Notes under the pieces: model-generated
What the model saw: only the letters and a program-made list of their open reading frames with translations
Told to the model about the DNA's origin: nothing
The model's database searches: none
DNA from: Planctomycetota bacterium
GTDB taxonomy: Bacteria > Planctomycetota > MHYJ01 > JACQXL01
Assembly: GCA_040753835.1 (NCBI GenBank)
Contig: JBFMDM010000002.1
Span: 1 to 57,724, forward strand
Direction: 5' to 3'
DNA length: 57,724 nucleotides
Made by a program: the position numbers and the translations under genes
Part shown: piece after piece, positions 16,241-57,724 of the stretch
Position numbering within the stretch: position 1 is the stretch's first letter
Layout: every line of letters starts with the position of its first letter

Positions 16241-17629
16241 ATGCCGTTTAATAACGAATTAAAACAGCGTGTCCTGGAAAAACTCAAGCCCTCTATGGAT
16301 AATATCTGGCTGAAGGAGCTTAATTTCATAGAGGAGCCGGAAGGCACGCTGAAGGTGCCGCTACCCAACGTTTTCTACGTGGATTATTACAGGAAGAATT
16401 TCCTTTCCCTTATAGAGCAGACCGTATCGGAGGTGGCCGGCCGCGGTTACAATATAACCCTTATTGCCCCGCCCGAGCAGGGACGGCTGTTCACGGATAT
16501 TCTTGTGACCAAAGATATGGGGCGCCGCCCGGCTAAGGATGGCAGAGAGCCGCCCGTTACTCCATCCGCCAATAAACCGGCCGGCAAGAACGATTTTACC
16601 CTGAATGAAAATTACACCTTTGACAGATTTGTGGTGGGCCTGTGCAACCGGATGGCGCATGCGGCGGCCCAAGCCGTGGCAACCAATCCCGGCAAGGCCT
16701 ATAATCCTTTGTTCATCCACGGCGGCGTGGGACTGGGCAAGACGCATCTCCTGCAGGCCGTCTGCCATCAGGTCCTCGCCCAGCGTCCTGACTGTTCCAT
16801 TTACTACCGTTCCGGCGAGGGATTTGTCAACGACTATATCATGGCCGTAAAGAACAACGCCTTTGAGAAATTCCGCCAGTCCTGCCGCTCCAAGGATATG
16901 ATGATAATAGACGACATCCATTTTCTCGGCGCCGGGGAAAAAGCGGCCAGCCAGGAGGAATTCTTTCATACCTTTAATGCCCTGCATAACAACCAGAAGC
17001 AGATTATTCTTTCCAGCGATTCGCCGCCCAAGGAGATACCGCTTCTGCAGGACCGGCTGGTTTCCCGTTTTAACTGGGGAATGGTGGCCCGCTTGGAGAC
17101 GCCCGACTTTGAGACGAGGGCGGCAATCCTAAGGAAGAAAGCCGAGGGTTATAAAATAGAACTGCCTGAGGACGTGGTGAATTTCATCGCCGAGGTTATT
17201 AACACGAATATCCGCGACCTGGAGGGCGCCCTAATCCGGGTCATCGGCCTGTCCCGCAGTTCCGGCCAAAACCCCACGGTTGCCCTGGCAACCGAGGCAT
17301 TAAAGGATGTTGTGGGCGCATCTTCGCGCCGAATAAAGGTGGCAAACATTATTGATATTATTGCCGGCTATTTTAACCTCTCGGCCGCGGACCTGCAGTC
17401 CAAGACGCGTCTGAAGTCCGTATCCCTGGCCCGGCAAATCGGGTTTTACCTGACCCGCCAGTTAAAACCGGACATGTCCCTTGAAGAAATCGGCGCGGCT
17501 TTCGGGGGACGGGAGCATTCCACGGTCCTGCTGGCCATAGAAAAAATCCGCAAACGCCTCCAAAAGGACGCCCAGTTCAGGGAAACCGTTAATCTCCTTA
17601 CCTCTGAAGTCAGGAAGAAATCGGTTTAG
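16241..17629 (+). CDS. dnaA: chromosomal replication initiator protein DnaA
   Basis: 462 aa. AAA+ Walker A (GGVGLGKTHLLQAV), DDIHFL box, and a C-terminal DNA-binding signature (SLEEIGAAFGGREHSTVLLAIEKI). Confidence 0.95.
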   Translation: MPFNNELKQRVLEKLKPSMDNIWLKELNFIEEPEGTLKVPLPNVFYVDYYRKNFLSLIEQTVSEVAGRGYNITLIAPPEQGRLFTDILVTKDMGRRPAKDGREPPVTPSANKPAGKNDFTLNENYTFDRFVVGLCNRMAHAAAQAVATNPGKAYNPLFIHGGVGLGKTHLLQAVCHQVLAQRPDCSIYYRSGEGFVNDYIMAVKNNAFEKFRQSCRSKDMMIIDDIHFLGAGEKAASQEEFFHTFNALHNNQKQIILSSDSPPKEIPLLQDRLVSRFNWGMVARLETPDFETRAAILRKKAEGYKIELPEDVVNFIAEVINTNIRDLEGALIRVIGLSRSSGQNPTVALATEALKDVVGASSRRIKVANIIDIIAGYFNLSAADLQSKTRLKSVSLARQIGFYLTRQLKPDMSLEEIGAAFGGREHSTVLLAIEKIRKRLQKDAQFRETVNLLTSEVRKKSV

Positions 17630-17922
17630 TTTTTGTTGCTTTTGCGTATAAAAGACGTTATTATAAAAGGCGGCGCGGCATAATAACCGGTCTGTTTTGC
17701 CGGTATTTATAAAACGCTATTAGAAAGATGAAATTTATCAACCGGTTATAACCCGTGTTTTACCGGTTATCTACAATCTGCTTGGGCGTGTTTATTGCCC
17801 ATCTCTTTGGTAATCTATGGGTTATATTTAGGTTTATTGGATATCTACAAACAGGCGTGTACATAATAATAAGAAGAAGAAAAATATATTAGTTTACTAT
17901 AAAATATTAGGAGGAGTGTATA
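17630..17922. other. putative oriC segment (dnaA-dnaN spacer with DnaA-box-like sites and AT-rich unwinding region)
   Basis: TTATCTACA at 17767-17775 (8/9 to TTATCCACA), ATATCTACA at 17841-17849 and TTATCAACC at 17735-17743. CCGGT(T)AT repeats three times. An AT-rich run at 17865-17905 lies just before dnaN. Confidence 0.5.
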
Positions 17923-19035
17923 ATGAAGGTTATATGCAATAAAGACCAGTTATTAAAGGCGTTTCAAGTTGTCAGCCCGGTTGTTCCTGCCAAGAGTTCA
18001 ATGCCGGTGTTGCAGAATGTCAAATTAAGCGCAGATGACAAAGCGCTTTTTATTTCCGCCACTGATTTGGAGGTGGGTATCCAATATCCGCTCTCGGCTG
18101 AAATAAAGGAAAAGGGAACGATAATTATCCCCAGCGGCCGGCTGGGCGGCATTTTGCGCGAGACAACAGACGAGCAGATAACCATAGAGGGCGTTGGCGG
18201 AGCGGCCAATATCAAGACCAAAACCAGTAAGTATAAAATAATGTGTATGGATTCAGCGGAATACCCGGATTTTCCGGCATTTAATGAAAAGAAAGCCATA
18301 AGCATAAGCGCTTCGGGATTGAAAGAAATGGTTTGCAAGACCACCTTCGCGGTCTCGCAGGAAATAACCCGTTATGCCCTGACCGGACTTTTGATGGAAA
18401 TACGCAAGAAAGAACTCCGGATGGTGGCAAGCGACGGCAAGCGGCTGGCCTATATTAAACGGCGTTCCGAACAAGAGGTTGCATCAGATATCAAGGTGAT
18501 AGTTTCTCCCAAGGCGTTGAACCTTCTGGAGCGGATAATAGAAGACGAGGAGCAGGTAATAAAAATAGAAACGGACGAGACGCAATTCAAGGCAATGATT
18601 CCCCAGAAAGACCAGAAAGGCATTATCCTGTTCTCCCGCCTGATAGAAGGGGCCTTCCCGGATTACGAAAGCGTTATTCCGCCGGACAGCGACAAGAAGA
18701 TAGAAATGCCAGCCGGGGAATTGCTGTCGGCAATGAAACGGGTTTCACTGGTAACCACGGACAAATTCAAGGCCACCCAGATATCCATGGAAAAAGACAA
18801 AATGACGCTCCTGACCAGGACCCAGGATGTTGGCGAGGCAACTGTAGAACTGCCCATAAAATATTCCAGCGAGGCGTTCAGGATAACCTTTAACCCGGAA
18901 TTCTTTATAGATATGCTCCGGATTGTCGGAGACGAGAACATAACCCTGGGGCTAAAGGACAAGACGTCCCCGGCCGTAATAAAGCAGGGCAAGGATTATG
19001 TTTATATCGTAATGCCCCTGACAATCGAGATGTAA
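17923..19035 (+). CDS. dnaN: DNA polymerase III beta sliding clamp
   Basis: 370 aa, typical length, positioned after dnaA. N-terminus MKVICNKDQLLKAFQVVSPVVP and C-terminal ...YIVMPL are sliding-clamp-like. Confidence 0.9.
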   Translation: MKVICNKDQLLKAFQVVSPVVPAKSSMPVLQNVKLSADDKALFISATDLEVGIQYPLSAEIKEKGTIIIPSGRLGGILRETTDEQITIEGVGGAANIKTKTSKYKIMCMDSAEYPDFPAFNEKKAISISASGLKEMVCKTTFAVSQEITRYALTGLLMEIRKKELRMVASDGKRLAYIKRRSEQEVASDIKVIVSPKALNLLERIIEDEEQVIKIETDETQFKAMIPQKDQKGIILFSRLIEGAFPDYESVIPPDSDKKIEMPAGELLSAMKRVSLVTTDKFKATQISMEKDKMTLLTRTQDVGEATVELPIKYSSEAFRITFNPEFFIDMLRIVGDENITLGLKDKTSPAVIKQGKDYVYIVMPLTIEM

Positions 19036-19045
19036 TGCTTGTTAT

Positions 19046-19972
19046 ATGGCAGACGAAATCTCAGCCCGTACGAGCAAGGCGGCTATCTGGAGTTTAATCT
19101 GCGGAATATTGTCGTTCCTGTGCCTGCCCGCGCTTCCGGCCATTATTCTTGGCATTGTTGCCCTGGTGGCCATCAGCAACAGCAACGGGAAACTAAAAGG
19201 GACCGGCTTGGCTATTGCCGGGATGATTGCGGCGGTTGTTATCCCGGTAGTTATGATACCCGTTTTGGCTATTATCGCGGCTATTGTTATTCCCAATGTT
19301 GTTCGCCCGCAGGCTGAACCGGCGCCGTTCTTTAACGACAGTTGTTGGACCGAGCCCCGGGATAGCGGCCCATCAAGCGAACTCCGCAGAGACCGCGTCA
19401 GCGAACAAATACCTGCCAACGAAGCCGCGGCTATCGCGTCCTTGCGGGTGCTGACCGTTTCCGAGTCAGTTTGGTATCAGCAGGACCCGGACGGCAACGG
19501 AATAAAGGACTACTGGACTTATGATGTCTCGTGCCTTCACCGGATGTTTCGGGCCGACAAAACAACCAAGGTCGCGTTTATTTCCCTGGACCTGGCCCGG
19601 GCGGACAGCAGTCCTGCCGAAACAGGCGATTTCGGAGAGAGGCCGCTTATAGAGGATTGGCTTACGGTGGCATTGGCGCCCAAAAACGGTTATTATTTCC
19701 AGGCAATGGAACTGGATGAAAACGGCGAGCCGTATAATCAGGTTGAGGCGGGCGAAACCGGCATAAAAGCGACCAACAAGATTAAATTCGGATTTGTGGC
19801 CTATCCGGCCGAGTATGGCAAGGCCGGCCGCAGGACTTTTATCGTAAACGAGCAGGGCACGGTATACGCCATAGACGTTAATCCGGATATTTACGGAATT
19901 GCCCTGCAGTGGCCGGCGGGCGACGACCCCAACGACCCGTATCAAAAGAGCAAGTGGTCGGCGGCGGAATAA
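19046..19972 (+). CDS. membrane protein with DUF4190-like N-terminus and DUF2950-like C-terminal domain
   Basis: 308 aa. N-terminal helices (AAIWSLICGILSFLCLPALPAIILGIVALVAISNSNGKLKGTGLAIAGMIAA). The C-terminus FGFVAYPAEYGKAGRRTFIVNEQGTVYAIDV recalls the AYPA.YG..G..TF.V...G.VY motif of DUF2950 (from memory). Confidence 0.6.
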   Translation: MADEISARTSKAAIWSLICGILSFLCLPALPAIILGIVALVAISNSNGKLKGTGLAIAGMIAAVVIPVVMIPVLAIIAAIVIPNVVRPQAEPAPFFNDSCWTEPRDSGPSSELRRDRVSEQIPANEAAAIASLRVLTVSESVWYQQDPDGNGIKDYWTYDVSCLHRMFRADKTTKVAFISLDLARADSSPAETGDFGERPLIEDWLTVALAPKNGYYFQAMELDENGEPYNQVEAGETGIKATNKIKFGFVAYPAEYGKAGRRTFIVNEQGTVYAIDVNPDIYGIALQWPAGDDPNDPYQKSKWSAAE

Positions 19973-20003
19973 CAAGTCCGCAGGCAGTCCCGCTAAGAGG
20001 GAA

Positions 20004-22969
<2,966 letters not shown>

Positions 22970-26043: not shown

Positions 26044-26101
26044 TCCCGCAGTTCTGCGGGATCTAAAAGCCAGTAACGACCAAAGGTCTAACTGGCTCTA
26101 A
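26044..26101. repeat. TAAC-hairpin element, copy A
   Basis: TCCCGCAG-ttc-CTGCGGGA followed by AAGCCAG-TAAC-GACC-aaa-GGTC-TAA-CTGGCTCT. Confidence 0.8.
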
Positions 26102-26103
26102 GA

Positions 26104-26418
26104 GGGGATAGGGTGGGGTCTATGGGGGGTGGGGGTGGGGTCTGGTATGCCTGACCGACCAAACGGGTGGTGGTTTAAGGCAAATCTGATGGACATAACC
26201 GCCCAGACCAGTAGACCTGTCTGATAGGACTGGCGGGCCTCTCCGACCAGATGGACAGGGGATGGCGACCTTACCGGAAGGGGCTGGCGCCGAGACCGGG
26301 GGACTTACCCGACCACACGGGTGGGTCTGTCCGACCATACGAGTGGGAGCTTACGCCGAGATTAGGAGGGATGACCGACCATATCGGTAGGTGGTGCGGC
26401 CGATACCCGGAGGAATTT
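26104..26418 (+). repeat. G-rich degenerate array of about 22-bp iteron-like repeats
   Basis: Eight contiguous units start at 26243, 26265, 26288, 26308, 26331, 26354, 26375 and 26397 (consensus CCGACCAnAnnGGnnGGG + 4-6 nt). Outliers sit at 26155 and 26199. GGGTGGGGTCT occurs twice (26111, 26133) within long G-runs. The 20-24-bp period is not a multiple of 3. Confidence 0.75.
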
Positions 26419-30994: not shown

Positions 30995-31128
30995 ACCCGC
31001 CAGAGGCGGGTCTAACTGGCTGTCCCTGCCCCTACGGGATAACTCACTGTAACATCCTGTCGGATTAACAGTGAGTAAACGGGACTCCTGCGGTCGTAAC
31101 GACCAATGGTTTAACAACCAGTAAGAAA
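30995..31128. repeat. compound hairpin cluster (copy F) forming the leader of the 31141 gene
   Basis: ACCCGCC-aga-GGCGGGT, CTAACTGGCT..., CTCACTG-TAAC-ATCC-tgtc-GGAT-TAA-CAGTGAG, GGTCG-TAA-CGACC, ...AACCAGTAAG. It is followed by AAGAAAGGAttaatttatATG. Confidence 0.7.
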
Positions 31129-31140
31129 GGATTAATTTAT

Positions 31141-32094
31141 ATGGCAAGAATACTTTATGACCGGATTAACGAGATAAAGAACAAGCACTTAAGCCCGCAA
31201 TCAGTCACGGGAGATAAGATAGCCAGCGATGCTATTGAAGAGAAACATATTAAGGACGGCGTGGTGACCAGACGTAAGATAGCCGATGGCGTGGTTGGTA
31301 CTAATGAACTGGTGGACGGTTCGGTTACCACGGCCAAGATAGCCAGCAAGGCGGTAACTACCGACAAACTGCAATCAGCCAGTGTAACTAATGAAAAGAT
31401 TGCGGATGGCGCAATTACCTCAGGCAAGATTGTGGCCGGGGCAATCACCACGGAAAAAATTGCCAACGGCGCGATCACCCGGGAAAAGGTGGCCGACCAG
31501 AGCGTGAGGAGCGAGGATTTGGTGGACGGCGCAGTGACCAGTGCGAAACTGGCGAGTAACTCGGTAACCGCGGCAAAGATTGCGGCCAATGCAGTCGGCT
31601 CATCCGAGATTGCGGCCAGTGCGGTTAATACCAGCGAACTGACAAACGGGGCAGTTACTACGGAAAAGATTGCCAACGGCGCGGTAACGCAGGAGAAATT
31701 GGCCGCCGGAATAGCCGCGGGCGAACGGCACATCATCGGCACCACACAGGGCGAACAGTCATTAGAAGGGCTTTATTTGCCCGGACAGTCGTTCCCGATT
31801 CCTTACACCGCGGTTGACCTGTCCCAATGGATTCCGGCCGGGGCTAAGTGGGCCATTGTCCAGCTCGGGATGTTTACCGAGTCAATGAGTCCAAACGTGG
31901 TGGCCGAGATGCGCGTGCGCCGGGATGAGATTCAGCGCGAGGCAATCTGCATCTCCAACGGCTCAACGGGCAAGACCGTCTGGAACGCCGGCCTCGTGCC
32001 ACTGACAAGTGGACGAACGGTGGAATATCAGTTGACGATGACCGGCAGTATAACGGTTACTATCTTTATTACAATTGTGGGATATGTAATGTAG
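31141..32094 (+). CDS. tail-fibre-like protein with 16 tandem 11-residue repeats and a globular C-terminal domain
   Basis: 317 aa. Residues about 18-193 follow an 11-aa period (VTTAKIASKAV TTDKLQSASVT NEKIADGAITS GKIVAGAITTE KIANGAITREK ...). The last 120 aa or so are non-repetitive. Confidence 0.7.
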   Translation: MARILYDRINEIKNKHLSPQSVTGDKIASDAIEEKHIKDGVVTRRKIADGVVGTNELVDGSVTTAKIASKAVTTDKLQSASVTNEKIADGAITSGKIVAGAITTEKIANGAITREKVADQSVRSEDLVDGAVTSAKLASNSVTAAKIAANAVGSSEIAASAVNTSELTNGAVTTEKIANGAVTQEKLAAGIAAGERHIIGTTQGEQSLEGLYLPGQSFPIPYTAVDLSQWIPAGAKWAIVQLGMFTESMSPNVVAEMRVRRDEIQREAICISNGSTGKTVWNAGLVPLTSGRTVEYQLTMTGSITVTIFITIVGYVM

Positions 32095-39126: not shown

Positions 39127-39161
39127 TGTAGCACACAGTAGGCGTTTACCGCCCGCTCCTT

Positions 39162-39216
39162 AGAACCTGTTAGACCTTTGGTCTTACAGGTTCTTAAATC
39201 CCGCCTTCGGCGGGAT
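39162..39216 (-). repeat. TAAC-type hairpin element (rpsJ-rplC spacer), consensus orientation on the minus strand
   Basis: The minus strand reads ATCCCGCC-gaag-GGCGGGAT-tta-AGAACCTG-TAA-GACC-aaa-GGTC-TAA-CAGGTTCT. The architecture matches copies A-E, with compensatory changes in the outer stem. Confidence 0.75.
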
Positions 39217-39752: not shown

Positions 39753-40694
39753 ATGAAGAGCGTGATATTGCTTCTTGCCGCCCTATCCGTGGCGTCCATT
39801 TTGGGCGGATGCATCATTTATACGCCGCCTGACCCGGACGGCCCGGATTTTTACAGCCCGGCCATACGATATAACCCACCGCCGGCCCTGGTGGAAATCG
39901 TCCACTCGGATATTGAATGGCTGGTCTGGGAATACTACGACTGGGACTATGACATTGTCTACGACCTGCGCTACCGGTATAAATATACCCCGGACGAGGT
40001 GGCGCTGATACTCTTTCTGGCGTATCACGGACGGGTAGAGCCCATCCGCATCGTCCAGTGGCGCCAGGCCAATACCCCCTGGATGACCATAACCACCTAT
40101 CACCTGCGGCTCCAGCCGGATATCTTCTTCGTGCCGGTCTCAACGGCCTACCAATTCGGGCCGCCCTACGGCCACGCCTACGGCCGTTACTGGAAAAACC
40201 CCAAGGCCGTGGTCCTAAGCGACGACGAGATGATTAACCTGGTCTATCTCAAGACCACCTGCCAGGCCTACAACGTCTCGCCGGTTGAGGTCATCAAACT
40301 GCGCGAGCAGGGCCGGGACTTTAACCAGATTGTTTGGGTGCATCGGAGCGAGGGTAGACACATCAAAACCACCCGGGGCCGGGAAATCCAGGAACCGCCG
40401 GCAAAGATAAAGATGCAGCCGGTTGTTTATGATAAGGATAAGGACAAGGGAAAGATTATATCCGGAGCCATGGACAGGATGGAAAGAGCCCAGGAAGGCG
40501 AGCCGGAAAAGGGCAAACCCGGACTGCGTCCGGGCGTAAACGATGGCATCGGTTCCGGGAACAAAGAGGACAATCCCGTGGATAGTTCCGCTGAAAGGGA
40601 CAAACCAAAGACAGATAAAGATAAGCCATCCAAGGACAAGGGTAAAGATAAACCGTCTAAAGACAAAGGTGGCAAGGGTAAAAAGGATAAATAA
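39753..40694 (+). CDS. lipoprotein of unknown function with Lys/Asp-rich repetitive tail
   Basis: 313 aa. Lipobox-like LGGC. The C-terminus is DKPKTDKDKPSKDKGKDKPSKDKGGKGKKDK. Confidence 0.65.
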   Translation: MKSVILLLAALSVASILGGCIIYTPPDPDGPDFYSPAIRYNPPPALVEIVHSDIEWLVWEYYDWDYDIVYDLRYRYKYTPDEVALILFLAYHGRVEPIRIVQWRQANTPWMTITTYHLRLQPDIFFVPVSTAYQFGPPYGHAYGRYWKNPKAVVLSDDEMINLVYLKTTCQAYNVSPVEVIKLREQGRDFNQIVWVHRSEGRHIKTTRGREIQEPPAKIKMQPVVYDKDKDKGKIISGAMDRMERAQEGEPEKGKPGLRPGVNDGIGSGNKEDNPVDSSAERDKPKTDKDKPSKDKGKDKPSKDKGGKGKKDK

Positions 40695-42868: not shown

Positions 42869-42926
42869 AGTCCCGCCTTCGGCGGGATTAAGAGCCAGTA
42901 ACGACATTTGGTCTAACTGGCTCTAA
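42869..42926. repeat. TAAC-hairpin element, copy D (abuts the tRNA-Phe 3-prime end)
   Basis: GTCCCGCC-ttcg-GGCGGGAT-t-AAGAGCCAG-TAAC-GAC-attt-GGTC-TAA-CTGGCTCTAA. Confidence 0.8.
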
Positions 42927-42927
42927 G

Positions 42928-42999
42928 TGGGCAGGGCCGGGGTCGAACCGGCGACACGTGGATTTTCAGTCCACTGCTCTACCACTGAGCTACCTACCC
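42928..42999 (-). tRNA. tRNA-Phe (GAA)
   Basis: Minus strand: GGGTAGG TA GCTC AGTGGTA GAGC A GTGGA CTGAAAA TCCAC GTGTC GCCGG TTCGACC CCGGC CCTGCCC A. This gives a full cloverleaf with anticodon loop CU-GAA-AA. CCA is not encoded. Confidence 0.9.
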
Positions 43000-48070: not shown

Positions 48071-49399
48071 TTAACGCCGGCGGAATCCGGACCCTGACGG
48101 CATAAACGGGTTGGCGGTCGCCGCCTCCTGCTTGCTTATCGTGCCGGTCACTACTTCCTGGCCTTCCTTGATATCGCCGTTTAATATCTCGGTAAAAGAG
48201 CCGTCCGTAATGCCGGTTCTGACGCTGACCGGCTTAAGTTTTCCGTTATTTAATATCCAGACCTGTTTCCGGGACGGCGTCTCTGTTTTATCCTTCCCGT
48301 TCGGCTTTGCCTCAGGATAAGAGCCAGTAACGACCTGCGGTCTAACTGGCTCTAATGGTTTCCGGCCCGTTCCCGGCTGGTGTGCTGGAGCGCCTGATAC
48401 GGCTTCCCGTTCCCGGCCTTCGGGCGCCTCCGCGGCCTTGTATTTATCAGCATCCTGGGGCACAAAGCGTAGGGCCGCATTGGGCACCCGCAGGACATCT
48501 TCGCGGCGCTCTATCTCAAACGAGAGATTGGCCGTCATCCCGGGCAGGAGTTTTTCCTCCGGATTGTCCGCATAGATAATCACCGTATAGGTCACCACGT
48601 TCTGGACCGTTGTGGGCGATAGCCGGATTTGCGCCACCCGGCCGCTGAACTTCTTTTCCGGATGGGCGTCCACCGTGAAATTGACCATCTGGTCCATCAG
48701 AATCTTGCCGATGTCCGCCTCGGCCACGCTGGCCTGTATCTGGATTTTGTTGAGGTTGTTGGCAATTATGAACAGGGTCGGGGCCGAGAGCGAGGCGGCC
48801 ACGGTCTGGCCCTCGTCCACGTTGCGCGAGACCACAATGCCATCTATCGGCGATTTGATGGTGGTATAGGCCAGGTTTATCTCCGACATCTTCAGGGACG
48901 CCTGGGACTGCTCGATACCGGCCTTGGCCAGTTTCAACTGGGCAATCAGCGAATCAAATGACGCCACCGCCGTGTCCAATTCTGATTGCGATATGAGGTC
49001 TTTCTTAGCCAGTTCCTGGGCCCGCTTGAATTCGTTCTCGGCCTGGGTGAGATTCGCTTCCACCCGCTCGGCATCGGCGATGCTGCGCGCCAGACTGGCC
49101 CGGTCTTGGGCGACCCGCGCCTCGTAGGACGCCGGGTCTATCTGGGCGATGATGTCGCCTTCCTTGACCCGAGAATTGAAATCCACGTATAACTTCTTGA
49201 CAGGCCCGGTTACCTGCGTGCCGACCTGGACCTGGAGCAGGGGCTGGACCACGCCGCTGGAAGTAACGGTCTTGATAACCGTGCCCTTGTCCGCCTTGGC
49301 GGTCTTATAGGATACCGCGCCGTTGGCGCCTCCGCCTAGGGTAAAATACAGGACCGCGGCCGCGGCCAGGACCGCAATCACGACGATAATCTTTTTCAT
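48071..49399 (-). CDS. efflux periplasmic adaptor protein (HlyD/MacA family)
   Basis: 442 aa. N-terminal TM, a coiled-coil hairpin (ARVAQDRASLARSIADAERVEANLTQAENEFKRAQEL...), beta-barrel segments, and a low-complexity linker containing repeat copy E. Confidence 0.88.
   Translation of the reverse strand: MKKIIVVIAVLAAAAVLYFTLGGGANGAVSYKTAKADKGTVIKTVTSSGVVQPLLQVQVGTQVTGPVKKLYVDFNSRVKEGDIIAQIDPASYEARVAQDRASLARSIADAERVEANLTQAENEFKRAQELAKKDLISQSELDTAVASFDSLIAQLKLAKAGIEQSQASLKMSEINLAYTTIKSPIDGIVVSRNVDEGQTVAASLSAPTLFIIANNLNKIQIQASVAEADIGKILMDQMVNFTVDAHPEKKFSGRVAQIRLSPTTVQNVVTYTVIIYADNPEEKLLPGMTANLSFEIERREDVLRVPNAALRFVPQDADKYKAAEAPEGREREAVSGAPAHQPGTGRKPLEPVRPQVVTGSYPEAKPNGKDKTETPSRKQVWILNNGKLKPVSVRTGITDGSFTEILNGDIKEGQEVVTGTISKQEAATANPFMPSGSGFRRR
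48315..48355. repeat. TAAC-hairpin element, copy E, inside the MacA-like coding sequence
   Basis: GGAT-AAGAGCCAG-TAAC-GACC-tgc-GGTC-TAA-CTGGCTCTAA. It is translated on the minus strand as ...LEPVRPQVVTGSYP.... Confidence 0.8.
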
Positions 49400-51021: not shown

Positions 51022-51098
51022 TTATTTCTCCCCAAAATAATGACTTTTTACCGCTTACTATATATAATACGGCTGTAAACAACTGACAATAAAAACCG

Positions 51099-52985
51099 AT
51101 GAATAACTTGATTCCCTACGCCAGGGGCGCAAAACCGGTTGACCTCCTGCTCAAGAACTGCCGCATGGTCAATGTCCTCACCGCAGAGATATACAAGACC
51201 TCTGTGGCTATTGCAGAAGGATTCGTGGTCGGATTCGGCACCTATAAATCCGAAAAGGTCATAGACCTTAAGGGCGCGTATCTGGCGCCCGGATTTATAG
51301 AGGGCCATATCCATATAGAAAGCAGTATGCTCTCGCCTGCGGAATTCTCCAATACCGTTCTGCCCCGCGGCACGACTACTGTGGTCTGCGACCCGCACGA
51401 GATTGCCAATGTCCTGGGTCTTAAAGGCATTAAATATTTCCTGGATGCCAACCTGCCAGAACGCCTCGCAATGGGGCAGGCGGGCCGCTACCCCGGGCTG
51501 AGCATCTACACAATGCTGCCTTCCTGTGTTCCGGCAACTGATTTAGAAACCTCAGGCGCCCGGCTCACAGCCCGCGACCTGCTTAAATTAGCCCGCCACC
51601 CGTATGTGCTCGGACTGGCCGAGATGATGAATTTCCCGGGCGTGCTTTACGAGAATAAAGACGTCCTGGCTAAACTAAAAATATTTGATATGACAGCGGA
51701 CGGCTTGCCGTTCCGTAGTCCCACTGGGACGAAGGATGGCCTGCCGTTCCGTAGTCCTACTGGGACGAAGGACGGCTTGCCGTTCCGTAGTCCTACTGGG
51801 ACGAAGGACGGCCTGCCGTTCCGTAGTCCTACTGGGACGAAGGACGGGCATGCGCCGGGATTGAGAGGAAAAGATTTATCCGCCTATATCTCTGCCGGCA
51901 TCCGCTCGGACCACGAGTCGTTCACGGTTGAAGAGGCATTGGAAAAACTCCGGAGCGGGATGCACCTGATGCTCCGCGAGGGCACAGCCGCCCGGAATCT
52001 GGAGACGCTCATCAAGGCGGTCACGCCCGGCAACAGCCGCAGGTGTATGCTGGTCAGCGACGACCGGCATCCGGACGACCTGCTCAAGAACGGGCATCTG
52101 GACGCCGCCTTAAGAAAGGCGGTGCGGCTGGGATTGGACCCGATAACCGCGCTCCAGATGGTTACGATTAATCCGGCAGAATATTTCGGGCTGAAGCGCT
52201 TAGGCGCCATTGCGCCCGGATTTGCTGCCGACCTGGTTGTCCTGCAAGACCTCAGGGACTTTAAGATAAAGATAGTGTTTAAGAAGGGAACGAGCATAAG
52301 GCATAGAGCAAAGAGTTTAGGTGGTCATTCTAATAACGCTCTACGCTTTACGCTCTACGCTTCGCTTCATCTGCCTCTGCTGACAGAGAGTGATTTCCAT
52401 ATCCGTTCATCAGGCCATAGAATGATAAAGGTCATAGAACTTATACCGAACCAAATAGTAACCAAAAAGACGATTCTGCCGGCGCTGATAAAAGACGGCC
52501 GGGCCGTGGCCGACACGAAACGCGACATCCTGAAGATTGCGGTCATAGACAGACACAGCGGCAAGAAGCACATCGGACTTGGATTCGTAAAGGGATTCGG
52601 CTTAAAGAGAGGCGCGATTGCATCCACCGTGGCGCACGACTCGCACAACCTGATTGTGGTCGGGACAAGCGATTGGGATATGCATTTTGCAGCAAAGGTC
52701 ATCCGGTATCTCAGGGGCGGCCAGATTGTGGTTTCATACGGCAGGATTATGGCATCTTTGCCTTTGCCTAATGCCGGGATAATGTCCGACCGGAGCGCGC
52801 AAGAGGTGGCAGAAGCGGTCCGCAAACTAAATCTTGAGGCGCGCAAACTGGGGTGCAGGGTATCCGAACCCTTTATGCCGCTCTCATTCCTGGCCCTGCC
52901 GGTTATCCCGGACTTGAAGATTACGGACAAGGGTCTGGTGGATGTGACTCAATTCCGGGTCGTGGGATTGTTTGAGCGTTCATAG
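51099..52985 (+). CDS. ade: adenine deaminase
   Basis: 628 aa. Motifs: PGFIEGHIHIESSML, VVCDPHEIANV, DGHAPGLRGKDLSAYISAGIRSDHE, LVSDDRHPDDL. Carries in-frame tandem-repeat insertions. Confidence 0.9.
   Translation: MNNLIPYARGAKPVDLLLKNCRMVNVLTAEIYKTSVAIAEGFVVGFGTYKSEKVIDLKGAYLAPGFIEGHIHIESSMLSPAEFSNTVLPRGTTTVVCDPHEIANVLGLKGIKYFLDANLPERLAMGQAGRYPGLSIYTMLPSCVPATDLETSGARLTARDLLKLARHPYVLGLAEMMNFPGVLYENKDVLAKLKIFDMTADGLPFRSPTGTKDGLPFRSPTGTKDGLPFRSPTGTKDGLPFRSPTGTKDGHAPGLRGKDLSAYISAGIRSDHESFTVEEALEKLRSGMHLMLREGTAARNLETLIKAVTPGNSRRCMLVSDDRHPDDLLKNGHLDAALRKAVRLGLDPITALQMVTINPAEYFGLKRLGAIAPGFAADLVVLQDLRDFKIKIVFKKGTSIRHRAKSLGGHSNNALRFTLYASLHLPLLTESDFHIRSSGHRMIKVIELIPNQIVTKKTILPALIKDGRAVADTKRDILKIAVIDRHSGKKHIGLGFVKGFGLKRGAIASTVAHDSHNLIVVGTSDWDMHFAAKVIRYLRGGQIVVSYGRIMASLPLPNAGIMSDRSAQEVAEAVRKLNLEARKLGCRVSEPFMPLSFLALPVIPDLKITDKGLVDVTQFRVVGLFERS
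51699..51842 (+). repeat. 4 x 36-bp perfect-phase tandem repeat inside ade
   Basis: The unit GACGGC(T/C)TGCCGTTCCGTAGTCC(C/T)ACTGGGACGAAG occurs at 51699, 51735, 51771 and 51807. It encodes (DGLPFRSPTGTK)x4, immediately followed by the native DGHAPG. Confidence 0.95.
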
Positions 52986-53499: not shown

Positions 53500-54096
53500 A
53501 TGCTCAAGAAACTAATTTTCTGGAAGATAACAACCATTTTTTTGCTTATTAGCACGCTAATTATGGGACTAATTATTGTCTGGCCAGAACCAGATGGATA
53601 TTCGCGAGTTCCCCGTATCATATCTATAGTAAGACTTATGGGGCTCAATCAAGAATCAATTAAGAAGGAAGTGCTAATTGATAAAAATAATAATGGTGTT
53701 GGAGAATATTCAGACAACATTAATTATATGCTTGAAACTAAATACTTAACTAAGGATATTAATAATAGCATTGATTATTCTCATTATAATTATATGGTAA
53801 AAGTAGGTGAAAGTGTTGAGGAAAGAGAAAAATCTTTTGAGATATACGCCATTCCTAAGGTGCCTTATAATTACTGTGATAAATACGGAGATGGAATAGT
53901 TGCTTGTGCTATTGACGAAACTGGGGTTATGAAATTTTCGGTAATGGAAAATGCAGTAAATTGGGACCCACCAATTGGTATAATGAAGAAATGGCAACCC
54001 TTAAGTAGTGACTGCTGGGGAGAACAATTAAAAAAACATTTTAGCATATCATTAACAGAAAAAATATTAAATAAAATATTTCATGGTCATTATTAA
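53500..54096 (+). CDS. membrane-anchored hypothetical protein
   Basis: 198 aa, AT-rich. GGAGAAGGA RBS. N-terminal TM helix WKITTIFLLISTLIMGLIIVW. The C-terminal FEIYAIPKV...GDGIVACAIDETGVM is loosely pseudopilin-like. Confidence 0.6.
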   Translation: MLKKLIFWKITTIFLLISTLIMGLIIVWPEPDGYSRVPRIISIVRLMGLNQESIKKEVLIDKNNNGVGEYSDNINYMLETKYLTKDINNSIDYSHYNYMVKVGESVEEREKSFEIYAIPKVPYNYCDKYGDGIVACAIDETGVMKFSVMENAVNWDPPIGIMKKWQPLSSDCWGEQLKKHFSISLTEKILNKIFHGHY

Positions 54097-54103
54097 AAGG
54101 GGG

Positions 54104-54520
54104 TTCGGGGGACAGCCCCGCTATCCAGCGGGACTCCGCGGCGGCTCCGCATACCGGATTTGAATAAGTAATTATTGCGCTATCGGGTTTTGGAGATTAT
54201 AATCAATTCTGATGATAGCCCTTAAGCCAATTAAGAAACACAATTCACCGACTACTGTCTACAGTCCACTGCCTGCTTCCCACTATATCCAGGACGGCTT
54301 GGGAAGTATCCGCAATCTCGTGTCATCTGCGGAGGCAGTGGTTAACTCGTATGATTATTACGGTTTTGGCGAATCCCTATCAGCCAGTGAGCAAGTGAGC
54401 AATCGTTACAGGTTTACCGGCCGGGAGTGGGACAACGAATCCAGCACCTACCGCTACCGGGCCAGGGAGTATAATCCGGCCAGCGGAAGATTTACGGCCA
54501 GAGACCCGATTGGGTATTTA
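54104..54520 (+). repeat. RHS cassette junction repeat, copy 1
   Basis: About 417 bp nearly identical and collinear (constant offset of 1625 nt) with 55729-56145. It covers 108 nt upstream of the ATG plus the first 100 or so codons. Confidence 0.9.
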
Positions 54521-55267
54521 GGCGGAATAAACATTTACTCATATTGTGGAAGCAACCCGGTTAACTGGATAGACCCCTCGGGCTGGGTGGCCAGATGGCC
54601 GGATGATGTCGGAGGCGAGGCAACAGACCTGTTATATAGAGTAAAAAGAGACCCGTGGGGTCGGCCAATAAATGACGAACCTGCTGGCGCAGATTTGTTG
54701 CATAGAGTAAAAAGAGACCCGTGGGGTCGTCCAATACCTGATTCTGAATCACAGGTGGAATTGATGGGGTTTAAAGAGTCGGTTGATTTCCTCCAGACAG
54801 AATGTGATGTTATTGGATTAATACCAGCAGTGGGAGAACCCTTTGATGCAGCGAGCGGAATAATTTCTGTATTTAAAGGAGATTGGATCGGTGCAGGTTT
54901 GTCTGCTCTTGCGTTAATACCTACCGGTGGCCAGTATTTTGGAGGCCTTAAACTTGTCAGAAAGGGCAAGAAAATTCTTGGAAAAGCAGATGATGTTGCC
55001 GATGCGACAAAAGTGGGCAAAAATGCGCCGCCAACGCCAAAGGCAGATACGCCAACTACAAAAGCACCGAAAATACCCGATGGAAGTAAAGATGTAAATG
55101 ACCTTAAGAGAGTAAGCGACCAAGAATTAAGAGATGCAGGGATTGACGCACATAAAATTAAAACAGGTAAAGGCACTGATCTTTATAAGGATAAAGATGG
55201 TAACCTTTATGAGGTTCCTAAGGGTGGAAGAGTAGGGGAGCCGACAGGTACGTCTCTCCCTAAATGA
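54212..55267 (+). CDS. orphan RHS-core / C-terminal polymorphic-toxin protein 1
   Basis: 351 aa. Residues 1-124 are the end of an RHS core (YRFTGREWDNESSTYRYRAREYNPASGRFTARDPIGYLGGINIYSYCGSNPVNWIDPSG). A unique 228-aa C-terminal region follows, with a PT-TG-like segment (AVGEPFDAASGIISVFKGDWIGAGLSALALIPTGG). Confidence 0.8.
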   Translation: MIALKPIKKHNSPTTVYSPLPASHYIQDGLGSIRNLVSSAEAVVNSYDYYGFGESLSASEQVSNRYRFTGREWDNESSTYRYRAREYNPASGRFTARDPIGYLGGINIYSYCGSNPVNWIDPSGWVARWPDDVGGEATDLLYRVKRDPWGRPINDEPAGADLLHRVKRDPWGRPIPDSESQVELMGFKESVDFLQTECDVIGLIPAVGEPFDAASGIISVFKGDWIGAGLSALALIPTGGQYFGGLKLVRKGKKILGKADDVADATKVGKNAPPTPKADTPTTKAPKIPDGSKDVNDLKRVSDQELRDAGIDAHKIKTGKGTDLYKDKDGNLYEVPKGGRVGEPTGTSLPK

Positions 55268-55282
55268 GAAAGAGATTTAAAT

Positions 55283-55723
55283 ATGGCTGGTAAGTTTTAT
55301 ATTGAGTTTAGCTTTAGAGGTGACGATTTTTCTCCTGAAGAAATAACAACATCTCTCGGTATTACCCCATCAAGGACATGGAAAAAAGGAGACAGGAGAA
55401 CCCCTAAAAATGCGAATACAAAAGTAGTATGCAAAAATAATGGATGGGTTATTAGAACCGAGGAAAAAACGGACGAAAACAATAACATGGAAGAACAAAT
55501 AGAACTTTTACTTGCGAGGTTAACACCACTTGCGTATAAAATAAAAGAAATTTGTTCTAATAATAAAAAAATAGAGGCCATATTTTGCTGTGTTTTATAT
55601 GCTATAGAAGCCAATCCGCAAGTTTATTTTAAATCTATGATAGTTAGGCAAATATCAGATATGGGTGCGTCTATTTGGTTTGATGTATATAATTTCGGGG
55701 ACGACATACCAAACTCAAAATAA
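55283..55723 (+). CDS. candidate immunity protein (DUF4279-like)
   Basis: 146 aa, 15 nt downstream of toxin 1. FYIEFSFRGDDFSPEEITTSLGITPSRTWKKGD resembles my recollection of the DUF4279 N-terminal signature. Confidence 0.55.
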   Translation: MAGKFYIEFSFRGDDFSPEEITTSLGITPSRTWKKGDRRTPKNANTKVVCKNNGWVIRTEEKTDENNNMEEQIELLLARLTPLAYKIKEICSNNKKIEAIFCCVLYAIEANPQVYFKSMIVRQISDMGASIWFDVYNFGDDIPNSK

Positions 55724-55728
55724 CGGAA

Positions 55729-56145
55729 TTCGGGGGACAGCCCCGCTATCCAGCGGGACTCCGCGGCGGCTCCGCATACCGGATTTGAATAAGTAATTAT
55801 TGCGCTATCGGGTTTTGGAGATTATAATCAATTCTGATGATAGCCCTTAAGCCAATTAAGAAACACAATTTACCGACTGCTGTCTATAGTCCACTGCCTG
55901 CTTCCCACTACATCCAGGACGGCTTGGGAAGTATCCGTAATCTCGTGTCATCTGCGCAATCTGTGGTTAACTCGTATGATTATTGCGGTTTTGGCGAATC
56001 CCTATCAGCCAGTGAGCAAGTAAGCAATCGTTACAGGTTTACCGGCCGGGAGTGGGACAACGAATCCAGCACCTACCACTACCGGGCCAGGCAGTATAAT
56101 CCGGCCAGCGGAAGATTTACGGCCAGAGACCCGATTGGGTATTTA
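55729..56145 (+). repeat. RHS cassette junction repeat, copy 2
   Basis: See copy 1. Also contains the segment whose reverse complement is found at 1-120. Confidence 0.9.
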
Positions 56146-56745
56146 GGCGGGTTGAATATATACTCGTATTGTGGGAATAACCCTGTTAATTATGTTGACC
56201 CAACTGGAGAACTGTTTGGATGGCTTAGAAATGCGGTAAATAAAGTTGCAAGTGTCGTTAATAATACACTATCCGCTGTTCGAGATGCAGTTCGGAAATC
56301 TGGTCTTCCAGAACCAGTTAAGAAAGTCGCTGATGCCGGATTAGGCCTTATCCAGAGTAAAGTATCTACCGATGCAAAGGTAACAAATGCTGTAACTGAA
56401 TTTGTGGACGATTATGGTGGCGGAATAGTAAAAAGCATGGTTGATGCGGCTAATGATCCTATGCCAATAATTGGCCCAGGTGAAGTTGCCGTTGAAACAA
56501 CTAGGATCGTACCGTCTTTGGTAAGAAATAATTATCATAATTACGATGCCGCTATAGTAGCCGGGGTGCTGGACCCGCCTAATCCGTATGAAGACCTACA
56601 TAACGCAGTGGTTTGCACGTATTGTGGAAATAAACCAGATACATCTGAAAATAGCCCTCAAACACCAGCGGCACCTAATACAAATCCGCCTAACCAAAGC
56701 GATACACCCAATCCACCAGATAATAATCATAATTCACAAAATTAG
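55837..56745 (+). CDS. orphan RHS-core / C-terminal polymorphic-toxin protein 2
   Basis: 302 aa. Same 124-aa RHS-core end (…NPVNYVDPTG), then an unrelated 178-aa C-terminal region ending in a Pro/Asn-rich tail. Confidence 0.8.
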   Translation: MIALKPIKKHNLPTAVYSPLPASHYIQDGLGSIRNLVSSAQSVVNSYDYCGFGESLSASEQVSNRYRFTGREWDNESSTYHYRARQYNPASGRFTARDPIGYLGGLNIYSYCGNNPVNYVDPTGELFGWLRNAVNKVASVVNNTLSAVRDAVRKSGLPEPVKKVADAGLGLIQSKVSTDAKVTNAVTEFVDDYGGGIVKSMVDAANDPMPIIGPGEVAVETTRIVPSLVRNNYHNYDAAIVAGVLDPPNPYEDLHNAVVCTYCGNKPDTSENSPQTPAAPNTNPPNQSDTPNPPDNNHNSQN

Positions 56746-56815
56746 AATGGCTATGTTGGAGACTCAAGTGCTCCATCATCGGGCTCTAGCGGAGAAAACC
56801 AAAGGAGGTAAATAG

Positions 56816-57592
56816 ATGCAGCGAAAGTATATCGCCTTGATAATTATTGTCTTTACCTTATTGTTTGGTATTGCACTAATGGATGATTTTTTTATTGAAG
56901 ATACACGGAAGGAAGCGGTTAAAATGGCGAGGATTTTATGTAAAGAGCCGGGATCTCAAGAAGCAACAGCGTTCTTTTCGGGAAAAAGGGAAACATTAAT
57001 GTTACCTGCGTTGATGACAATAATAGAAGATAAAAAGGAAGATATTGAAATAAAATCAATGGCAATAACCTTTATTTCTGCGCTTAAAGATAAGAGGGCA
57101 ACCGAATTACTGCTGGAATTACTTAACGATGATAATCAGAATTTAAGAATTATTGTTATTGATGCATTGGGGCACATTAAAGATAGGACCTCAACAAAAA
57201 GATTGTGTGAACTCTGGGTGTTAGAAACCGCCAACGGTAAGGATGATTCAAAAAGTATTCAAATGAGTGTAGCCGTGGCGCTTGGCAGAATCAAAGACAA
57301 AAAGACGACACCTTCTTTCCTGGAAACATACAACTCAAGCAATAAGAGGATAAAAATGCTTTCTGCAGTCGCGTTATATGAAATATCGGGGGACGATATC
57401 TATCTAAACGACATAAAAGCATTCTTGCAAGATGATGATCCCGAATGGCGTATGGGCACAATAGTTATGCTTGGTAGCATGGGCAATAAAAAATCTATCC
57501 CTTTGTTCGAAGACGCGTTAAAGGATAACGATTATAAAGTTAGGCAGACCGCAGAGAGATATATAAATCTAATTAAAGGCGAAGGTCGGTAG
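56816..57592 (+). CDS. HEAT-repeat protein with N-terminal TM helix (candidate immunity protein 2)
   Basis: 258 aa. TM helix YIALIIIVFTLLFGIALM. Repeated units follow: ...A..L..LKDKRA...L..LL.D.N..LR..VIDALG.IKD / VAVALGRIKDKKT / DDDPEWRMGTIVMLGSMGNKKSIPLFEDALKDNDYKVRQTA. Confidence 0.65.
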   Translation: MQRKYIALIIIVFTLLFGIALMDDFFIEDTRKEAVKMARILCKEPGSQEATAFFSGKRETLMLPALMTIIEDKKEDIEIKSMAITFISALKDKRATELLLELLNDDNQNLRIIVIDALGHIKDRTSTKRLCELWVLETANGKDDSKSIQMSVAVALGRIKDKKTTPSFLETYNSSNKRIKMLSAVALYEISGDDIYLNDIKAFLQDDDPEWRMGTIVMLGSMGNKKSIPLFEDALKDNDYKVRQTAERYINLIKGEGR

Positions 57593-57636
57593 AGTCGGTC
57601 CGGTGACACCCACCTCGCCTCAGTGGTGAATTGGAA

Positions 57637-57724
57637 TTCGGGGGACAGCCCCGCTATCCAGCGGGACTCCGCGGCGGCTCCGCATACTGGATTCAAATAA
57701 GTAATTCTTGCTTCACTGGATTAT
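57637..57724 (+). repeat. RHS cassette junction repeat, copy 3 (truncated by window end)
   Basis: TTCGGGGGACAGCCCCGCTATCCAGCGGGACTCCGCGGCGGCTCCGCATA... is identical to the heads of copies 1 and 2, then diverges moderately. This implies a further cassette beyond the window. Confidence 0.85.

Follow-up and report, generated by a model that had tools for sequence, protein, structure and literature searches.

The 57,724 nucleotides of contig JBFMDM010000002.1 from a Planctomycetota bacterium (assembly GCA_040753835.1), referred to as the window below, include on the forward strand a gene for adenine deaminase, ade, in which four head-to-tail units of 36 bp stand directly before the codons of the Asp-Gly-His (DGH) motif. 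The units occupy 51699–51842 and are in phase with the open reading frame (ORF) of 51099–52985, since the array begins 600 nt after the start of the frame (51699 − 51099). Both the identity of the gene and the four in-frame units at this position had been proposed in an earlier note on this DNA, and both are confirmed, the former by TIGR01178, Pfam and superposition on the structure 3nqb, and the latter by the sequence itself, by Tandem Repeats Finder and by a scan with the consensus unit. The array is a coding tandem repeat, or minisatellite: its copies are far above chance, and they lie in phase with an intact frame. The features of the gene are as follows.

51040–51068, forward strand: sigma-70-like promoter match ATGACT-17-TATAAT, 30 nt 5′ of the ade start (consensus scan, 10/12; a pattern match only)
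51099–52985, forward strand: ade coding sequence, 628 residues, adenine deaminase (amidohydrolase superfamily) with C-terminal Adenine_deam_C (ORF list, TIGR01178, PF01979, PF13382, Foldseek)
51453–51485, forward strand: second private insert, 11 residues, L119–G129 (LPERLAMGQAG), non-repeated (lacking in 115 of the 120 aligned sequences; predicted local distance difference test score, pLDDT, <50 at 122–129)
51621–51623, forward strand: codon of Glu175 in the AEMMN motif, end of strand 4 (invariant in 120 sequences; strand E170–176 in the model)
51690–51698, forward strand: remodelled upstream junction, ATG ACA GCG (M198 T199 A200), corresponding to CGG ATT (R I) in the closest relatives (codon comparison with L001, L002 and L004)
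51699–51734, forward strand: repeat unit 1, GACGGCTTGCCGTTCCGTAGTCCCACTGGGACGAAG, encoding DGLPFRSPTGTK (sequence, consensus scan)
51735–51770, forward strand: repeat unit 2, starting with GATGGCCTG, encoding DGLPFRSPTGTK (sequence, consensus scan)
51771–51806, forward strand: repeat unit 3, GACGGCTTG ... CCT, encoding DGLPFRSPTGTK (sequence, consensus scan)
51807–51842, forward strand: repeat unit 4, identical to the consensus, encoding DGLPFRSPTGTK; T247-K248 start strand 5 in the model (sequence, model)
51843–51847, forward strand: partial fifth copy GACGG, which coincides with the native codons of Asp249-Gly250 and with the microhomology common to the unit boundaries (Tandem Repeats Finder extension to 51847)
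51849–51851, forward strand: His251 codon CAT of DGHAPG, strand-5 metal ligand (invariant in 120 sequences; aligns with GHARGL of 3nqb)

The product of ade scores 630.7 bits with the TIGR01178 equivalog (cutoff 472.5), the match being split in two by the array, and 476 with the E. coli-type model NF007457, which is under the cutoff of 768 for that model. Pfam finds PF01979 (Amidohydro_1) and PF13382 (Adenine_deam_C), and there is a weak match to the YerA C-terminal domain; the YerA/Bh0637 subgroup deaminates N6-methyladenine rather than adenine. The best solved relative is 3nqb, the Ade of Agrobacterium tumefaciens (Atu4426), with which the AlphaFold model of the window protein is matched by Foldseek at E 2e-49 and template modelling scores of 0.82/0.87 (3nqb_A). 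The start codon is consistent with homologues. Furthermore, H70, H72, E175, H251, H272, E273, D321 and D322 are all present, and they fall in invariant columns of an alignment of 120 sequences, namely the window Ade and 119 homologues. The ligands are presumably contributed by the HxH of strand 1, the bridging Glu of strand 4, the His of strand 5, the His-Glu of strand 6 and the Asp of strand 8, and Glu175 is taken, as in PDB 3nqb and E. coli Ade, to be the carboxylate bridging both metals. As judged from these matches, ade is a bona fide member of the adenine deaminase family, and activity on adenine is predicted.

Structure of the array

Tandem Repeats Finder gives the array as 51698–51847 with a period of 36, 4.2 copies, 94% matches, 0 indels and a score of 272, which is the top of 39 rows in the window, the runner-up array scoring 76. 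A scan of the window with the 36-nt consensus unit, GACGGCCTGCCGTTCCGTAGTCCTACTGGGACGAAG, allowing up to three mismatches, hits exactly 51699, 51735, 51771 and 51807 with 2, 1, 1 and 0 mismatches, respectively; the chance expectation is 0.00, and none of 100 shuffles gave any match. No ORF of 60 or more residues in the ORF list overlaps 51699–51842 on the opposite strand.

The peptide DGLPFRSPTGTK is encoded identically by all four units. The units had been described as differing at two or three synonymous or near-synonymous sites and as starting with GACGG in every case. Indeed the variable sites are few, but their number is exactly three (unit positions 3, 7 and 24) and every one is a strictly synonymous transition, with the pattern C,T,C in unit 1, T,C,T in unit 2, C,T,T in unit 3 and C,C,T in unit 4; GACGG opens units 1, 3 and 4, while unit 2 opens with GATGG. 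The two 72-bp halves of the array are 97% identical, and the near-identity of the units makes the array young relative to the gene, in agreement with the recent expansion proposed in the note. If transitions fell at random, the probability that all three differences would be synonymous is ~0.04, and it is ~0.02 for any kind of substitution. This pattern is a weak sign of a peptide that is made and kept under constraint.

Each unit contains the small palindrome pointed out earlier, GTCC-TACTG-GGAC, which is extended to GTCCC-ACT-GGGAC in unit 1, and also a second one, ACGGC-YT-GCCGT. These stems of 4–5 bp are not significant alone, and the single-stranded DNA of the whole array folds much better than shuffles (z = −4.6). 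At the protein level, Pro, Gly, Ser and Thr abound in the unit, which carries a net charge of +1 (+4 for the whole array) and has an R-S-P-T-G motif in every copy. After unit 4 the codons GAC GGG CAT GCG CCG GGA give DGHAPG.

The insert among homologues and in the predicted fold

Among 5.8 billion proteins searched, the nearest Ade shows 68% identity over the whole query and 76–77% over aligned columns, and the nearest relatives are 562–583 residues long. The note had pointed to orthologues as the place where the same 48 residues should be sought; in the alignment, the array or any part of the unit is found in 0 of 119 homologues. The spacing between Glu175 and Asp249, which is 73 residues in the window Ade, is 24–28 residues in 117 homologues and 32 and 35 in the other two, so that the loop between helix 4 and strand 5 (α4–β5) tolerates some natural length variation. 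The closest relatives have the codons TTT GAA CGG ATT GAC GGG CAT (F E R I D G H) at this place, while the window has TTT GAT ATG ACA GCG, then the four units and then GAC GGG CAT, which turns FERI into FDMTA. The array itself accounts for the 48 added residues that had been counted, but the net gain over the closest relatives is 49, consisting of these 48 and of MTA in place of RI.

The ade gene is divergent from an adjoining MacB-ABC-MFP-OEP efflux operon. A syntenic orthologue on a contig from groundwater (L002, protein P0003) has the same divergent operon beside ade, and FERI-DGH without the insert. The window Ade departs from the alignment at 3 of 144 columns that are at least 95% conserved, and its clade mates depart at 2–7. 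Many private, lineage-specific inserts of 9–30 residues, placed in various loops, are seen in the closest Ade clade, which consists of metagenome-assembled genomes (MAGs) resembling the Planctomycetes-Verrucomicrobia-Chlamydiae (PVC) group (P0003, P0007, P0010 and P0011); for example, P0007 has SIPTFVGITRCNPALAGLTAS and P0011 has LAPLEASSKPPRSSGVAKTLLTG. In the loop that holds residues 119–129 of the window Ade, which are predicted to be disordered, a different insert of 7 residues is present in four distant homologues.

The AlphaFold model of the window Ade has a mean pLDDT of 85.8. Helix 187–195 (α4) is followed by coil, then by strand 247–250 (β5) and directly by His251, and pLDDT is <50 for residues 202–244, while the rest of the fold is confident and unchanged. 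P0003 was used as a natural orthologue without the insert for comparison: its model has a helix at 179–187, a 3-residue turn and a strand at 191–193, with pLDDT ≥90. The α4–β5 loop thus measures 3 residues in the nearest orthologue vs ~51 in the window Ade. In (β/α)8 amidohydrolases each metal ligand is found where a strand ends C-terminally, and the α-to-β loops lie on the opposite face; therefore, the array is expected on the face of the barrel opposite the metal site. The earlier placement next to a catalytic motif holds along the sequence but not in space, where the α4–β5 loop belongs to the far face and is predicted to be coil with pLDDT <50. The product of the array would be a disordered excursion of ~50 residues, with which the Pro/Gly/Ser/Thr-rich composition and the charge of +1 per unit are in accord, and the Thr-Lys ending unit 4 would stand in for the start of β5.

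Origin of the unit and state of the gene

The array had been thought to be seeded by duplication of the sequence at that point. This origin is not borne out: only the GACGG edge of 5–7 nt is native, and the other ~30 nt of the unit find no match above shuffled controls. Indeed, when the adjacent native sequence (DGHAPGLRGKDL or the upstream codons) is considered as the source, similarity stops at GACGG(G/C). Because the shared part is the GACGG edge only, and the upstream junction is also rebuilt, the array is not duplicated native ade sequence. Judged from these comparisons, the first unit must have arisen by another insertion or replacement event, duplication being the later amplification only.

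Searches for related sequences were extended beyond the gene. No further copy of the unit is present on either strand of the window at up to three mismatches, whether the 36-nt consensus or a 19-nt core is used, and k-mer sharing and local alignment of the unit with ade, the window and the relatives are no better than with shuffled units. Neither JGI metagenome contigs nor GTDB genomes contain an exact 24-mer of the unit, and the fully back-translated 12-residue unit is matched by nothing in JGI contigs or IMG/VR. A word-indexed protein search with the 48-residue array also gave no match, which is a weak negative, as even the query itself was missed, probably through composition filtering. An exhaustive phmmer search of 1.8 billion protein representatives with the array returned 64 matches. 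Seven of them, including the best, P0121, were inspected, and they were rejected as homologues: they carry other repeats with a period of 12 residues, e.g., GLENRSRTGSTA and VLPFRSHMGTRY, in unrelated proteins or spurious ORFs, with E-values inflated by the periodicity. The repeat VLPFRSHMGTRY belongs to P0129 (172 residues) and has LPFRS..GT(K/R) in common with the unit of Ade, the two being 56% identical. As the likeness is to a translated satellite, it is probably due to chance, yet it is the closest unit found.

The growth of the array may be pictured as follows. In an ancestor, the two residues before DGH, Arg-Ile in the nearest relatives, would have been replaced by a stretch of ~15 residues, MTA-DGLPFRSPTGTK, and the replacement would leave a 36-bp stretch flanked by GACGG on either side. 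With these short direct repeats in place, slipped-strand mispairing or unequal exchange between them could then amplify the unit. The variants of the units are most economically read as a history of 1 → 2 → 4, in which one unit would have become two, a substitution would have occurred at position 7, the 72-bp pair would have been duplicated to give four units, and two further substitutions would have followed.

Somewhat better than an even chance can be given to the account in which the array is a real, lineage-specific, in-frame coding minisatellite in a functional ade, grown by slippage and carried as a tolerated passenger. Most likely, the enzyme would still fold and deaminate adenine, perhaps with some loss of stability, and the insert would be tolerated rather than serve as a regulatory device. 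The note had suggested that the repeat could modulate or disable the enzyme; the intact ligands, the ordinary level of conservation and the purely synonymous differences between units speak for tolerance, and the Lys in strand 5 speaks for some cost. As the period is a multiple of three, a change of copy number leaves the frame intact, and such changes would alter the length of the loop.

Several points weigh against this account. The array and its copy number are known from the assembled sequence alone, and no donor for the first unit was found in the window, JGI, GTDB, IMG/VR or the protein searches. The synonymous-only signal consists of just three sites. Directly before DGH, all 119 homologues have Ile, Val or Leu and the window Ade has Lys, and the block 241–250 has a mean pLDDT of ~69 vs ≥90 in P0003, so that strand 5 is modelled with intermediate confidence; judged by the model, folding or metal binding could be compromised by the Lys and the weaker strand. 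Where the loop lies with respect to the active site is presumed from barrel topology and the DSSP string, and AlphaFold is no measure of stability or activity.

Among the rival accounts, an assembly artefact, in which the true genome would have fewer units (0–2) or another number and a short-read metagenome assembler made the four-unit path, possibly by threading strain variants together, is improbable. It is true that tandem repeats cause assembly errors, that a de Bruijn graph resolves them only if k exceeds the repeated stretch (PMC6868369), and that the contig terminates inside another repeat family, as is typical of short-read assembly. However, assemblers usually collapse tandem repeats rather than expand them (PMC6868369). 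In addition, exact repeats within the array reach 38 nt at most, and all k-mers of at least 39 nt are unique; therefore, an assembly with such k has an unbranched path through the array. Every unit junction has its own variant signature, and the junction of units 2 and 3, at which the end of one unit runs into a unit start of T type, is possible only in a molecule of three or more units and cannot arise from 2-unit molecules. The array is also perfectly in frame, with no indels. An unlikely account, though a more probable one than the artefact, is that the array is real but damaging: Gly-Thr-Lys would replace the hydrophobic start of β5 with ~50 disordered residues attached, so that the barrel would be weakened or His251 misplaced, and ade would be crippled or recently inactivated (an incipient pseudogene), or its activity would scale inversely with copy number. 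The Lys before DGH and the lower confidence of strand 5 speak for this account, as do the Thr two residues before DGH, where homologues mostly have P or R, and a loop spacing more than twice that of the longest homologue (73 vs ≤35); moreover, the similarity of the units marks a recent event, after which decay elsewhere in the gene is not yet expected. Against it, the frame is open for 628 codons with all invariant residues kept, the conserved columns show no excess of changes, and all three substitutions that followed duplication are synonymous, where some two thirds of substitutions should alter the peptide if there were no constraint. The α-to-β loops of TIM barrels commonly accept insertions, and this loop naturally varies, the corresponding spacing reaching 24–35 residues.

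The remaining accounts assign a nature or a role to the unit itself, and each is very improbable. One is that the unit derives, as a copy, from a mobile or dispersed repeat of very small size, comparable to the small dispersed repeats of cyanobacteria or to repetitive extragenic palindromic (REP) sequences and miniature inverted-repeat transposable elements (MITEs), that landed in ade and multiplied. The unit indeed has no source in ade, it has two short palindromes and the favourable single-stranded fold, another dispersed palindromic element exists in the window, and the relatives' Ade proteins have private inserts. Small, tandemly repeated and possibly mobile bacterial elements of 20 bp have been described (PMC2884548, citing Elhai et al., 2008). 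On the other hand, the window has no second copy and shares k-mers with the unit at chance level, the public collections searched with the 24-mer and the back-translated unit gave none, and a low fold energy is expected of any palindrome-bearing tandem array. It is just as doubtful that the array is a selected functional module, such as a flexible Ser/Thr-Pro loop, a phosphorylation or docking site, or a spacer tunable by copy number for Ade oligomerisation or activity. The four peptides that are identical despite DNA differences and the R-S-P-T-G motif of each would fit such a module, as would a Ser/Thr protein kinase with an FHA domain (993 residues, 4059–7040) encoded in the window, which is relevant only to the speculative idea of a phospho-acceptor. 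However, conservation of the unit was seen in none of the other organisms or proteins searched, matches are limited to unrelated proteins with low-complexity repeats of 12-residue period, three synonymous sites are thin evidence, and the kinase is 45 kb distant and of a sort common in these phyla. A 'protein-length contingency locus', in which slippage in steps of 36 bp would tune the stability, oligomerisation or regulation of Ade in purine salvage, is likewise hardly to be expected.

If real and tolerated, the array would be a natural example of an extreme stretch of an α-to-β loop upstream of a metal-ligand strand, and of a minisatellite born in a cytosolic housekeeping enzyme instead of a surface protein. 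It may be of use to protein engineers as a pointer to permissive insertion sites, and to annotators as a case of an equivalog hidden Markov model match split in two. It opens no new biological question and, as it stands, is a curiosity of one uncultured genome.

Surroundings and comparison with known systems

In the rest of the window, a replication-origin gene set lies at 16241–22969, and a palindromic element recurs at the positions listed.

16241–17629: dnaA, replication-origin gene set
17923–19035: dnaN, replication-origin gene set
20282–22969: gyrB, replication-origin gene set, unusually long (895 residues)
26064–26106, forward strand: palindromic element
31087–31129, forward strand: palindromic element
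39159–39183, inverted: palindromic element
42889–42931, forward strand: palindromic element
48318–48360, forward strand: palindromic element

GyrB has at most ~50–60% identity to the best GTDB genomes, which are MAGs of Omnitrophota, Phycisphaerae and Lentisphaeria. From dnaA, dnaN and gyrB and from this identity, the contig is assigned to the chromosome of a deep PVC- or Omnitrophota-like uncultured lineage with no close sequenced relative. The palindromic element is ~40 nt long, TAAGAGCCAGTAACGACC-nnn-GGTCTAACTGGCTCTAAG, occurs in 4–5 dispersed copies and has a REP-like or terminator-like look.

Downstream of ade, orphan Rhs/YD C-terminal toxin cassettes are clustered at 54087–57711. The ORF at 54212–55267 combines a core end of PxxxxDPxGL type with an Ntox33 tip, a conserved 92-nt leader appears three times (54087, 55712 and 57620), and an in-frame duplication of 66 nt is found at 54624–54741 within the Rhs-CT ORF (DLLxRVKRDPWGRPI twice). 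Positions 1–135 hold this repeat family again, as an inverted copy; the contig therefore ends in the Rhs-cassette repeat. Other in-frame coding repeats of the window include a 27-nt sequence present 2.5 times at 40605–40670, the 3′ end of the ORF 39753–40694, and repeats of 30-nt periodicity at 31407–31705 in the ORF 31141–32094, which has no Pfam match.

Compared with Ade as known from EC 3.5.4.2, TIGR01178 and 3nqb, the window protein has the same N-terminal β domain, (β/α)8 barrel and Adenine_deam_C, and all of the metal-binding motifs (HxH, the Glu of AEMMN, DGH, SDHE and DD), but it differs in the 48-residue repeat, in the 11-residue insert at 119–129 and in the Lys before DGH.

As to the array, a unit of 36 bp with a small internal palindrome recalls clustered regularly interspaced short palindromic repeat (CRISPR) arrays. 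This was rejected: there are no spacers (the start-to-start distance is 36), the array is inside a translated ORF, and Rfam gives no CRISPR-DR at threshold. A structured RNA at the array was also rejected, as Rfam at the gathering threshold gives tRNA-Phe alone in the window, and so was a phase-variable contingency locus acting by frame switching or a promoter repeat, in view of the period of 36 and the position internal to the ORF. With small dispersed repeats and REP/MITE elements, the array shares a short palindromic unit, tandem multiplication and frame-preserving insertion in a gene, but not dispersed copies, of which there are none in the ~58 kb examined or in public collections.

The closest likeness is to bacterial coding minisatellites, or in-frame variable-number tandem repeats, of E. 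coli, S. aureus and others, which likewise have head-to-tail, near-identical units whose length is divisible by three (PMC2884548, PMC6868369), have short direct-repeat edges that permit slippage, and affect the length of the protein and not its frame. Replication slippage between short repeats is the usual explanation for them, and most reports concern surface or secreted proteins (PMC2884548). The host in the window is, in contrast, a cytosolic metabolic enzyme, in which the array abuts a metal-ligand strand; known here from one sequence, the array is at most a candidate for the variable copy number implied by the term VNTR in the note. With nothing that points to a special mechanism, the array is thus regarded as a coding tandem repeat of a common type whose location is unusual.

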